Virus record (IMG/VR): IMGVR_UViG_2541047777_000011
Length of the DNA: 37,505 nucleotides
DNA from: a virus
Taxonomy: Duplodnaviria; Heunggongvirae; Uroviricota; Caudoviricetes
Strand: one strand, 5' to 3'
Within the stretch, counting starts at the first letter, position 1, and the number at the start of each line of letters is the position of its first letter. Shown here one piece after another: positions 29,301-32,300 of this stretch. The position numbers were made by a program.

Positions 29301-32300
29301 AGACCGCCCACCAGGATAATTCAGCCAGCGATAACTCCCGCTCCTGCGTGCCATTCATTGCATGGCGTATGACGTCAATCATCCATGCTGCCAGGTTTTG
29401 TTGAGCAAGTTGCTCAAGTGATTCGGATGTCTGGTCACGCAGCTGGTTATCGCAGTGCCAGCACAACACCATCGCGCCGGTGCCGTAACGATGTATGACG
29501 GTTTCACTGTGATGATAGTCACCATGAGGCCACTGGCAGGATTTGACATGACGCAACAGCCAGTCAGACAGTGCACCAGCGCCGCCAGCAGCACGAATCA
29601 CACGCTCATTGCTGAAAAACCGCAGTAATGATTTATCCTCCGCCAGCGGCTGGCGAACGGCAGGGACGATGCCGGACGGCAGACCACGCATGCTTTTCGG
29701 TTCCGGCTCCACCAGCACTCGAGGGTTATGGAATACCTGCATGGATTCACGGCCTGGTTTAAGGACCACCAGCCCAAGTTCCGGTACCGGAACAGGTCGA
29801 AGTAATACCCGCACGTTACCTCCAGATGCGTTGCTGGAATGTGCGGGACGGACGCGGTGGGCGCTCGGAGTACGGCAGCCTGACGTAGATTATCCAGTGA
29901 CGATAATCGAGGCTGAGGGCTTTCTTAACCTCGTATCCACGCCTGCGGTAACACTGAATTATCCATTCAGCCTGCTCTTCAGTGCATGGAGGATGCTGGA
30001 ACCAGTCTGATTTGAATGCGTGAAAACGCCGTCCGCACCTGCTGGCAAAGACGGCAGAATCATTAGAATTGTGTAATTTGGTATCGTGCGCCATCGGTTG
30101 TCTCTGCTGGCGCAGCAGGTGCCAGTTGTTCAGGCTGGCGTGCGAATTGTAAACCAGAATGCCAGGAAAAAACAAAACCCGCCGAAGCGGGTTACGTGCG
30201 GGTGCGTTGAGGATGCCTGACACATCAGAGGTGGCGAGGGATTTCTCCCTCGCCGGGTCTCTTACTCCTCAGGTTCGTAAACTGTGAAGACAGCGACCTC
30301 CGTCTGGCCGGTTCGGATTCGTACCTCGCAGAGGTCTTTCCTCGTTACCAGTGCCGTCACTATGACGGTTAAACAGATGACGATCAGGGCGATTAACATC
30401 GCCTTTTGCTGCTTCATAGCCTGCTTCTCCTTGCCTTTCGGCACGTAAGAGGCTAACCTACATGTGTTCAGCATGGATTGAGCCTCAGATTAATGTTAAG
30501 CGTCTTGCAGGACGCGTAATGTTAACTGGGGCTTTTCTCTATCTGCCTTTTGGTGTTCATGCCTGAGGCAGATAGCCTCAAGCACCCGCAGCAATTCTAC
30601 TTAACTCACGTCACCTCGCCAATATGAAATCAATCAGAAAGGTGATCCATAAAATCACTCCTTCTCTTCTTTTCCGTAGTGGAGTTGGCCAATTTTGATA
30701 AGAGGGCGCCCCTGAGATTTGCGGTGTAGATTGGTATCGCGCAGAGAATACACACAGCCACAATATTCCTGCTGATAGAATTTTTCGCGCTTGCTGATTT
30801 CAATCATACGGGACGAGCCGCCCTGCTTGCGCCAGTTATAATCCCAGTACACCATACCCGGATAATGCGCAACAGCTCGCCGCCCACACTCGTTAACCTG
30901 CTGCATATTTTTCCAGCGTGAAATGCCCAGTGAACTGCTGATCACACTGAAACCATTTTCAGCAGCGTACAACGCTGTCCGCTCAAAACGCATGTCAAAA
31001 CACATGGTACAACGGATCCCCCTCTCAGGCTCCCATTCCATTCCTTTGGCACGTTCAAACCAGTTGTCGGTGTCGTAATCAGCATCGATAAACGGCACGC
31101 CGTGTTGTTCAGCAAAGCGAATATTTTCATCCTTACGAATTAAATACTCTTTCTGAGGATGAATGTTCGGGTTGTAGAAAAAGATGGTGTAGTCGATTCC
31201 CGAGGCCTGAAGCGCCTCCATCACTTCACCGGAACATGGAGCACAGCAAGAGTGCAGTAGTAGTTTGTTTGCCCCGTTTGGGAGCTCCAATTTAGGCCGT
31301 TTGAAATCAGCAATAGTCATAAATATTTTTATTGGGGTCATGAAAATAGCACAGAGTGTAGCATCAGAGCAGGGCTATCGGGAATATATGTCTAAATCTG
31401 GTAATATCTGGTTTTGACGCAAAGCGGACAACCACGCTGGCTCTACCCTGCGCCATGAAAATGTCAATTCACATCTGAACTAATGCTCTTTAATCTAGTA
31501 ACGTCTAAAATACCTAACATTTCCTTGATAAAATGCCAGTACACGCTGCATAGCTTCGCTCTTCCGGCACTCGCGACAGATTATATTCAGGCGCCTGTCG
31601 TAGCGGCGTATTTCGCCGTCTGGTAACGACCAGATAAGGTCCGGATCAACCGCAGATGGTTTATTCAGCTTTGCCCTTGAGAGCTTTTTACGGGCATTTT
31701 GCCAGTCCTTACGCGCCTGTTCAGACGGGAATAACCCGTAACCAGAGTTGTATACATCGCCACTGGCAACCAGCTCTCTGGCCAGAACGCTCATCAGATA
31801 TCTTGTTGCCCCAGTTTTAGCTTCCAGTTGTCGTAACGTCTCGCGCCCACTCTGGCGTACGAGTTCAAGAACCTGCCCTTTAATTTTTTCCCGCTCTTCT
31901 TGTGTAAAAACTTTTGCCACAAGCCCTCCTGAAAATTACCTCATGACCAGAAATTAACACTTACCCCCTGAAGCCCGGCGGAATTTCGTTATCCGGTTCA
32001 GAAATATGATTCACACAACGCTGGTTGTTCGTGCCGCTTACCGGGAGCAACCAGGGGTTTTCAAAATTCCGGTCCGGTCCAAAAAACGTCGTCGCTCGCT
32101 GAACAAATTCCGTTCCCGTTTTCCCGGTAGCCGCCAGGTATCTTGCGTAACGCCTCACACCATCCAGCATGGCCTCTGGTGGCACCCCCTCGCGTAATCT
32201 GGCCTTCCAGGCACTGAAAGCGGATTTCTTCGGGTTTGCCCCAGCACGCAACGGGTATTCCCGCCAGACCTGTTCGAACACATCCGGATAATCCACTCGT

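Follow-up and report, generated by a model that had tools for sequence, protein, structure and literature searches.

A predicted complete hok/mok/sok module with an in-frame mok at a prophage hokD locus

Does a hokD-type toxin gene found in a prophage have an antisense RNA of its own, and does its structured leader belong to the RNA switch for which the hok/sok family is known? This question was raised by a 37,505-nt stretch of viral DNA (Caudoviricetes; IMG/VR record IMGVR_UViG_2541047777_000011), which we refer to as the window. On its minus strand, within 30164–30654, a sequence-only reading had recognized a hokD-type toxin with a terminator and a structured leader, and had left open whether a Sok-like antisense RNA is present. 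Alignment, RNA folding and comparison with reagents published for the sokW RNA now point to a sok gene on the plus strand. We consider it very probable (about 0.88) that the locus is a complete hok/mok/sok type I toxin–antitoxin module with the canonical mechanism, representing an untruncated hokD and a close allele of hokW–sokW, the system of Sakai prophage 5 (Sp5)/933W-type phages encoding Shiga toxin 2 (Stx2). The module is already known, in that RefSeq copies name the toxin hokD, the close allele has been characterized and the mechanism of the family has been classic since the 1990s.

The predicted sok gene and the reading frames opposite it

The predicted Sok RNA gene lies on the plus strand. 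Alignment upstream of the annotated sokC and sokB genes placed its promoter at 30431..30459, with a −35 box TTGCCT (30431–36), a 17-nt spacer and a −10 box TAACCT (30454–59). By alignment and folding, the predicted Sok RNA comprises about 77 nt (30466..30542, plus strand), with a free 5′ tail (GUUCAGC...), a long terminator hairpin and a U-rich tail. Both sokC and sokB have annotated 5′ ends that fall on G30466 in the alignment, the 3′ end of sokC aligns to approximately T30542, and the promoter, start and terminator hairpin align with the K-12 annotations of sokC, sokB and sokE. The 77-nt RNA folds into a hairpin followed by CUUUUCUCU, with a minimum free energy (MFE) of −32.7 kcal/mol (z = −6.0). 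At the tip of the hairpin, a 16-nt insertion is present relative to SokC, SokB, SokE and R1-type Sok, and it lengthens the terminator hairpin in comparison with the 59-nt SokC. The same insertion is found in sokW, which is identical to the window Sok at 76 of 77 positions, the sole difference (30509) being located in the loop.

The reagents used by Takada et al. (PMC8621323) to study hokW–sokW could be placed directly on the window. The sokW northern probe YO-592 is complementary to plus-strand positions 30466–30495 over its whole length (30/30), and the hokW probe YO-597 corresponds to plus-strand positions 30429–30458. The "pro-less" sokW oligonucleotide YO-421 departs from the window only at T30454, A30456, T30459 and A30460, that is, in TAACCT(A). 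Six of the nine oligonucleotides checked matched the window exactly, while YO-349 and YO-541 were off by one and two leader positions, respectively. The question left open by the sequence-only reading is answered by the plus-strand sok gene found by alignment, folding and the sokW reagents.

Rfam family RF01794, named "sok", matched the locus with 120.5 bits (gathering threshold, 59) at 30587..30412 on the minus strand, over model positions 1–157, i.e., the full model. The family also matched hokC, hokB, hokE, the R1-type locus and hokW. As a strand control, we examined K-12 hokC, hokB and hokE, where the RF01794 match always lay on the hok-sense strand, whereas the RefSeq sokC, sokB and sokE genes lie on the opposite strand, inside the matches. 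The 3′ end of the model takes in the hok Shine–Dalgarno (SD) sequence and AUG. The strand control and the 3′ end of the model together indicate that the Rfam model is written in the hok sense, so that a match proves homology of the leader and not the strand of the antitoxin. Interpretation of the minus-strand match as a sense-strand antitoxin was rejected by the control on the K-12 loci. An annotation taken directly from RF01794 gives sok the wrong strand and about 2.5 times its proper length (window 30412–30587; controls hokC, hokB and hokE).

The toxin gene is intact, as previously claimed. The open reading frame (ORF) listing gave a 51-aa hok coding sequence (CDS; MKQQKAMLIALIVICLTVIVTALVTRKDLCEVRIRTGQTEVAVFTVYEPEE) on the minus strand (30262..30417), running from 30417 to 30262 with no stop codon or frameshift, and the peptide matched Pfam HOK_GEF (PF01848) with 77.3 bits (E = 6e-22; cut-off, 22). 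The hok SD sequence, AAGGAG (30427..30432, minus strand), is invariant in 10/10 of the loci compared below and is the first stretch kept in K-12 hokD. The designation "hokD-type" was also borne out, since 50 of 51 residues are shared with K-12 HokD and the CDS, 3′ untranslated region (UTR) and terminator are collinear with those of K-12. The sole difference, A46V, results from a C-to-T change at 30281. Between the window Hok and HokW, five of the last eight residues are unlike (FTVYEPEE vs FVDYESEK). The Tyr47 codon contains a TACG motif (30276..30279, minus strand), at which adenosine-to-inosine recoding by TadA has been reported for K-12 hokD; in the K-12 mRNA, TadA edits the TACG of the conserved C-terminal Tyr codon, converting Tyr to Cys (PMC5630033; bioRxiv 10.1101/2025.08.07.668861). 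Base 30281, changed in A46V, directly precedes the loop-like heptamer UUACGAA on its 5′ side (window 30276–30282). As the TACG motif is kept, TadA editing may, by analogy, form a further layer of control on the window hok.

The in-frame upstream extension noted in the mok position is likewise present. A mok-position ORF of 70 codons starts at ATG 30474 and shares its end with hok (30262..30474, minus strand); because the mok and hok AUGs are 57 nt apart, this ORF amounts to an N-terminally extended Hok, the 19 N-terminal residues being MLNTCRLASYVPKGKEKQA. The mok SD sequence, GAGG (30483..30486, minus strand), is located 8 nt before the mok AUG and aligns with the GAGG of the R1-type locus. 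An Stx2a phage carries exactly this extension in its annotated "host cell-killing modulation protein"/MokW. K-12 mokC/hokC has the same in-frame layout, MokC consisting of a 19-aa extension plus HokC, and is annotated likewise; judged by these sequences, the in-frame mok of the window is not unusual. At the R1-type plasmid locus, mok is out of frame with hok because the two AUGs are 58 nt apart.

Alternative pairings of the predicted hok mRNA

A consensus scan of the interval 30050–30750 reported a single σ70-like site, the hok/mok promoter (30594..30622, minus strand), which consists of a −35 box TTGGCG (30622..30617), a 17-nt spacer and a −10 box TAGAAT (30599..30594). This promoter lies within the range 30164–30654 and had not been mentioned previously. 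In the alignment, a −10-like hexamer occurs in the same register at hokW, hokC, hokB, hokE and the R1-type locus. The scan for terminators in the same interval also gave a single hit, an intrinsic terminator composed of AACCCGCUUCGGCGGGUU followed by UUGUUUUUU (30167..30193, minus strand). Its stem, AACCCGCTTCGGCGGGTT (30193..30176; 7 bp, 5 of them G–C), is followed by TTGTTTTTTC and corresponds to the downstream terminator that had been noted. The terminator is common to the window, K-12 hokD and PPompW, and is missing at the Stx2a-phage hokW locus. The predicted full-length hok mRNA, of about 421 nt (30167..30587, minus strand), would begin at a +1 near G30587, the position to which Rfam position 1 aligns, 7 nt downstream of the end of the −10 hexamer, and would run as far as the T-tract of the terminator. 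The MFE of the 421-nt RNA is −174.6 kcal/mol (z = −8.1 compared with shuffles).

According to the family model, a stem between tac and fbi closes the full-length hok RNA while ucb sequesters the mok SD; after trimming of the 3′ end, tac pairs with ucb and the mok SD with dcb, and the nascent RNA keeps tac in a metastable hairpin (Le Rhun et al. 2022, PMC9841398). As judged from the sequence, all the elements of this switch are present in the window. The tac segment, GGGUGCUUGAGGCUAUCUGCCU (30566..30587, minus strand), forms the 5′ terminus of the predicted transcript, and inverted repeats and folds indicate three possible partners for it: fbi, ucb and the sequence that directly follows. The last of these pairings gives the 5′ metastable hairpin, GUGCUUGAGGC/GCCUCAGGCAU (30559..30585, minus strand), which was recognized as an inverted repeat and in the MFE structure of the isolated leader, and which would sequester tac in the nascent transcript if the locus behaves like its relatives. 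The ucb, or anti-SD, segment, AGGCAGAUAGAGAAAAGCCCC (30528..30548, minus strand), is the downstream arm of an inverted repeat with tac; in the folds, ucb is paired with tac when the RNA is open, and its GCCCC end with the mok SD when the RNA is closed.

This tac/ucb stem accounts for the 10-bp inverted repeat that had been noted in the structured leader. The repeat is perfect (CTATCTGCCT, 30539–30548, vs AGGCAGATAG, 30567–30576), is nested in a 21-nt imperfect repeat (30528–48/30566–86), coincides with helix 1 of the Rfam family model and persists in all 10 related loci. It is the conserved pairing of the mRNA 5′ end with one of its two mutually exclusive partners. The other, fbi (CCUCAACGCACCCGC; 30198..30212, minus strand), is complementary to the 5′ end over 9/9 and 6/6 positions and was recovered in both the MFE and the centroid structures. 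Taken alone, each of these complementarities is only modestly improbable: a perfect 10-bp inverted repeat with a loop of 3–40 nt arose in 29 of 2000 dinucleotide shuffles of 30164–30654, and a 9-nt perfect complement between the transcript ends (30582–30590 with 30197–30205) in 96 of 2000.

Three further elements complete the switch. The Sok-target hairpin (30449..30486, minus strand) was seen in the open-form fold and consists of a mok SD/dcb stem, GAGGCU...AGCCUC, with a loop CUGAACA (30471..30465) that opens with the YUNR motif CUGA and is complementary to the Sok 5′ end, GUUCAG. The YUNR motif is reportedly a defining feature of the target loop. In the 3′ UTR, a hairpin found as an inverted repeat, GGCGAGGGA-gaaa-UCCCUCGCC (30233..30254, minus strand; 9/9 bp), is likely, by analogy with R1 (PMC9841398), to protect the processed mRNA at its 3′ end. 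Downstream of it, the segment AUGUGUCAGGCAU (30213..30225, minus strand) is the partner of the mok start region (30474..30462), as indicated by an inverted repeat and by the full-length MFE and centroid structures.

Folding of the full-length RNA yielded the closed form in both the MFE and the centroid structures. In this form, 30587–30576 pairs with 30200–30212 (tac/fbi), the GCCCC of ucb holds the mok SD GAGG, and 30213–30225 holds the mok AUG region (30474–30462). Among the 3′-truncated transcripts, only one, spanning 30589..30215, had the open form as its MFE structure, with the tac/ucb stem, extended beyond the 10-bp repeat by GGG/CCC and GCUU/AAGC, and the GAGGCU...AGCCUC target hairpin with its 7-nt loop. 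Since the MFE folds vary with the ends chosen, thermodynamic prediction alone leaves the pathway unsettled, and counts of conserved pairs were used instead.

Ten loci were aligned in the hok sense: the window, UPEC 26-1, the Stx2a-phage hokW, two plasmid copies, PPompW, PhiR12_3, a P1-like phage, K-12 hokB and an R1-type plasmid. Base pairs taken from the predicted folds were compared with slid partners and with 500 shuffles, controls that overstate significance because the structures were derived from the window sequence and the ten loci are related. In the closed structure, 87.8% of cells were paired (slid partners, 37–44%), 17 pairs had changed on both sides and none of the 500 shuffles reached the observed values on four of five measures. 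The open structure gave 88.8% (slid partners, 36–46%), 12 pairs changed on both sides and, again, 0/500 shuffles on four of five measures. For the metastable hairpin the figures were 93.6%, 34–46% and a single pair, with 58/500 shuffles; this hairpin is too conserved for covariation, 58–124 of 500 shuffles reaching the observed values.

Among the elements of the closed form, the tac/fbi helices were 90–92% paired, with one compensatory pair per helix, and the helix between the 3′ UTR segment and the mok start was 79% paired, with 4 pairs changed on both sides. Among those of the open form, the tac/ucb helices were 96–97% paired, with compensatory changes at 3 pairs, and the target hairpin was 79% paired, with 6 pairs changed on both sides. 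The 3′ UTR hairpin was 85% paired, with 5 pairs changed on both sides. As far as sequence comparison can tell, these results agree with the published family model. That the elements are intact and that both alternative pairings are kept with compensatory changes indicates purifying selection on the regulation.

Relatives of the module and its place in the prophage

The closest characterized relative is hokW–sokW. Its Mok N-terminal extension is the same as that of the window, its sok promoter and Sok 5′ tail/target are 100% identical, the leader from tac to ucb and the CDS are each 95% identical, and every part of the transcript is 91–100% identical. Takada et al. (2021, PMC8621323) showed that HokW is toxic and that sokW, expressed from its own promoter, neutralizes HokW, partly via RNase III and Hfq. 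Both RNAs were detected in lysogens, together with smaller hokW RNAs that were seen on northern blots and not assigned; upon RecA-dependent induction sokW disappears and HokW appears, and deletion of hokW–sokW halves phage release (PMC8621323). The two loci differ at their margins and in their location. In hokW, the −35 region and all of the sequence 3′ of fbi are unlike the window, with no GC-hairpin terminator. The gene lies near the right prophage end, beyond the tail genes, whereas the window locus lies between queH and a DUF968 gene, upstream of Q. Homology with the Stx2a-phage hokW is limited to the stretch between a point about 20 nt upstream of the −10 box and the end of fbi (extract 1455–1510 vs window 30160–30200), which suggests that the unit moving between phage contexts is essentially the transcript from the −10 box to fbi.

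Comparison with K-12 hokD (relF, Qin prophage) indicates what the window locus has retained. Homology is confined to window 30168–30431 (98.1% nucleotide identity over 264 nt), within which the SD, CDS, 3′ UTR hairpin, fbi and terminator are collinear and about 98% identical. Both genes have the same prophage neighborhood, beside a DUF968 gene (ydfU in K-12). The homology ends about 16 nt upstream of the hok AUG, beyond which relE and relB are found in K-12, where hokD stands third in relBEF and lacks an RNA antitoxin; in the window relBE is absent upstream and queH is there instead. K-12 hokD thus lacks the promoter, tac, ucb, mok start, target hairpin and sok, all of which the window has, and the Rfam search gave no RF01794 match at the K-12 hokD locus. 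Its fbi is nevertheless kept at 100%, without the tac partner. From the limits of the alignment and the presence of relBE upstream, we infer that K-12 hokD is a 5′-truncated derivative with an orphan fbi and that the window carries the complete form.

More distant relatives show the same organization. K-12 hokC (gef)/mokC/sokC has mok in frame like the window and a similar Mok leader (MLNTCR...KEK.AMKQ), and its leader scored 118 bits in Rfam; it is located at another chromosomal locus, by nhaA and outside any prophage, with IS186 just downstream of the CDS. The hok/sok system of plasmid R1 (parB), the prototype of the family, has the order of elements and the three alternative pairings of the 5′ end found in the window, and shares with it the positions of the mok SD and AUG, the register of the sok promoter, the YUNR loop, the 3′ protective hairpin and an fbi directly before the terminator. 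Nucleotide identity is only about 51–55% in the CDS and leader, and HokW is 44% identical to R1 Hok (PMC8621323). R1 hok/sok is plasmid-borne and acts in post-segregational killing.

Two plasmids carried hok-type leaders with other downstream sequence. In the Salmonella enterica sv. India plasmid NZ_CP022016.1 (extract 501–1079), the leader is complete (Rfam sok 74.4 bits, full model) and comprises tac, ucb, a long Sok hairpin, the target hairpin, the SD and the region of the sok promoter. In place of hok, an ORF of 133 aa that resembles a lipoprotein (MRVFISLPFIIALTGC...) lies behind this leader and carries a TolA C-terminal domain (PF06519, 29.2 bits). The TGA of the mok-position ORF overlaps the ATG of the lipoprotein gene (ATGA), which suggests that the Sok/mok cassette has been taken over for the control of another gene. 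The Escherichia fergusonii IncY plasmid NZ_CP057567.1 (extract 513–687) contains a hok-type leader and sok region (Rfam 91.4 bits) with no hok CDS behind it, and its homology to the hokD-clade loci stops near the sok −10 box; this leader may be an orphan sok or the remnant of a deletion.

By its gene content, the hok module of the window belongs to the early-right ("nin") region of a lambdoid prophage, with queH on one side and the DUF968 gene on the other. Window positions 24100–36720 (12.6 kb) and a prophage carried by E. coli UPEC 26-1 share 99.94% identity; in that prophage the annotated order on the same strand is QueH, hokD, a hypothetical protein, DUF968, RusA, a Q-type antiterminator, four tRNAs, holin and lysozyme. 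The queH gene (epoxyqueuosine reductase; PF02677, 221 bits) occupies 30655–31341 on the minus strand and ends 33 nt upstream of the hok −35 box; in the scan of 30050–30750, no terminator appeared in the interval from queH to the hok promoter. A 621-nt query spanning the locus matched 4757 of the 5426 complete E. coli genomes. Matches covering at least 80% of the query occurred in 2568 (about half of the 5426), at a median of 2 places per genome and a maximum of 11. A further 102 phage records matched, mostly Stx-converting phages, in which the ORFs were labeled "MokW protein", "host killer protein" or [quoted passage not shown].

Several other features of the prophage were recorded. The UPEC 26-1 copy also annotates a YdaT-family toxin (window ~33103–33528) and a RelE/ParE-family type II toxin (34514–34801), indicating that the prophage has several toxin modules besides hok/sok. 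The four tRNA genes, on the minus strand at 26169–26478 between the Q antiterminator and the lysis genes, are Gly-UCC, Thr-UGU, Lys-UUU and one with a CAU anticodon, which ARAGORN calls Met and the RefSeq copy annotates as Ile. On the plus strand, three prophage small RNAs passed the Rfam gathering threshold, namely DicF (36155–36206, 76.7 bits), isrK (36441–36517, 66.6 bits) and C4 antisense RNA (36542–36629, 73.8 bits), the latter two being about 25 nt apart.

Mechanism, possible roles and significance

If the locus works like its relatives, a constitutive promoter would give rise to the mRNA of about 421 nt. In the full-length molecule tac would pair with fbi, ucb would hold the mok SD and the 3′ UTR segment would hold the mok AUG, and such an RNA would be neither translated nor bound by Sok, a consequence taken over from R1 for a pairing that rests here on complementarity, folds and conservation. 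Slow trimming of the 3′ end, presumed from the family, would remove the terminator and fbi and allow tac to switch to ucb, the alternative pairing described above; the mok SD would then be exposed and the target hairpin with its CUGA U-turn loop would form. Translation of mok, which is in frame with hok in this clade, would run into hok and permit Hok synthesis. The plus-strand Sok of about 77 nt would pair by its free 5′ tail with the target loop and block mok, and a fall in Sok would let Hok enter the inner membrane and kill or lyse the cell. By analogy with hokW–sokW, the likely role of Hok is to hasten lysis and phage release after prophage induction. The physiological role is less certain than the molecular mechanism; prophage retention and exclusion of other phages are also possible.

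A number of observations weigh against this interpretation. The sok −10 box, TAACCT, matches the consensus at only 3/6 positions and the consensus promoter scan did not report the sok promoter, which is why the promoter was placed by homology and published mutations. The MFE folds of truncated mRNAs flip between the open and the metastable/closed structures with the ends that are assumed, and in the isolated leader the open fold reaches −51.3 kcal/mol, vs −57.9 kcal/mol for the MFE; the comparative controls are generous for the reasons given with them. The ends of the hok transcript are predictions from the Rfam model and the position of the promoter, and 3′ processing of hok mRNA is established for R1 only, from which it is extended to the window by analogy. 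HokD was toxic in a recent survey (bioRxiv 10.1101/2025.08.07.668861), and toxicity of the A46V peptide of the window would follow from that of its relatives. In the NCBIfam search no model reached its cut-off, the best being the generic Hok subfamily (45 vs 73 bits); the RefSeq name "HokD" probably stems from exact-protein naming rather than from a hidden Markov model. Because its genomic place differs, the role of hokW may not transfer to the window locus. Finally, according to earlier tests cited in bioRxiv 10.1101/2025.08.07.668861, chromosomal hok loci gave no post-segregational killing.

Of the competing explanations, the one that survives best accepts the same module and assigns it a different selected role, defense or retention rather than assistance in lysis. 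Hok would then act either by abortive infection against superinfecting phages, with the unstable Sok running out once host transcription is shut off, or by killing any cell from which the prophage has been lost. The multiplicity of copies in many E. coli genomes (median 2, up to 11 places) would fit such a role, as would the divergence of the Sok/target region. The segment containing the mok SD, target hairpin and Sok tail (30449–30486) is the least conserved in four of five non-identical hokD-clade loci, being 68–76% identical to the window, while the CDS in the same comparison is 92–99% identical; this is expected if copies avoid cross-protection, and the divergence could reflect diversification of Sok specificity among co-resident copies. 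In hokW, the target segment is 100% identical. In PPompW, the Sok hairpin is shorter and quite different, with 22% identity in that segment. No enrichment of hok near defense systems was reported (bioRxiv 10.1101/2025.08.07.668861), the only direct experiment on a near-identical allele showed a pro-phage effect on release and not defense (PMC8621323), and the window sequence itself has no direct bearing on the question. We therefore regard a defense or retention role as unlikely, though worth keeping in view.

Considerably less probable is a silent relic, an intact-looking module that is carried passively, with Hok never made at meaningful levels and no role. The fate of other K-12 loci speaks for it, as IS186 lies by hokC and hokE, IS150 in mokA, and relBE replaces the hokD leader; moreover, the sok and hok promoters are only moderate matches to consensus. 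What makes a relic hard to accept is that both alternative RNA pairings are conserved with compensatory changes and every element is intact. In addition, about half of the complete E. coli genomes have a copy at the coverage given above, and the hokW–sokW allele, so similar in each part of the transcript, is expressed and has a phenotype. The idea that the minus-strand RF01794 match marks a cis-acting leader RNA on the hok strand with no antisense gene at all can practically be dismissed, as it is contradicted by the strand control at hokC, hokB and hokE, by a model 3′ end that includes the hok SD and AUG, and by the sokW probe, which detects a plus-strand RNA.

Within the preferred interpretation of a complete, functional hok/mok/sok module, a more speculative proposal combines two suggestions, namely that the placement of the module, in sense orientation in the early-right operon, is functional, and that the divergence of Sok and its target represents diversification of specificity. 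We hold it only tentatively and think it rather doubtful. Were the placement functional, read-through from the early promoter on induction would hit the weak sok promoter head-on and silence sok, which would explain the unexplained rapid RecA-dependent loss of sokW. Induction would also produce hok-containing transcripts with ends unlike those of the self-closing mRNA, making Hok an induction-timed auxiliary lysis factor, and diversification of Sok and its target would allow as many as 11 copies to live side by side in a genome with no cross-protection among them. The terminator of the hok module itself stands between the early genes and Q.

The significance of these results extends little beyond correct annotation. 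PGAP annotates only the toxin, and the sok RNA gene and the mok frame are missing from the annotation of what is an autonomous module; similarly, the placement of the Rfam "sok" family on the hok-sense strand leads automated annotation to misplace the strand of the antitoxin. For the hok family, the window documents an ancestral, complete hokD; a locus of this kind left its traces in K-12 as the orphan fbi and the terminator of hokD.

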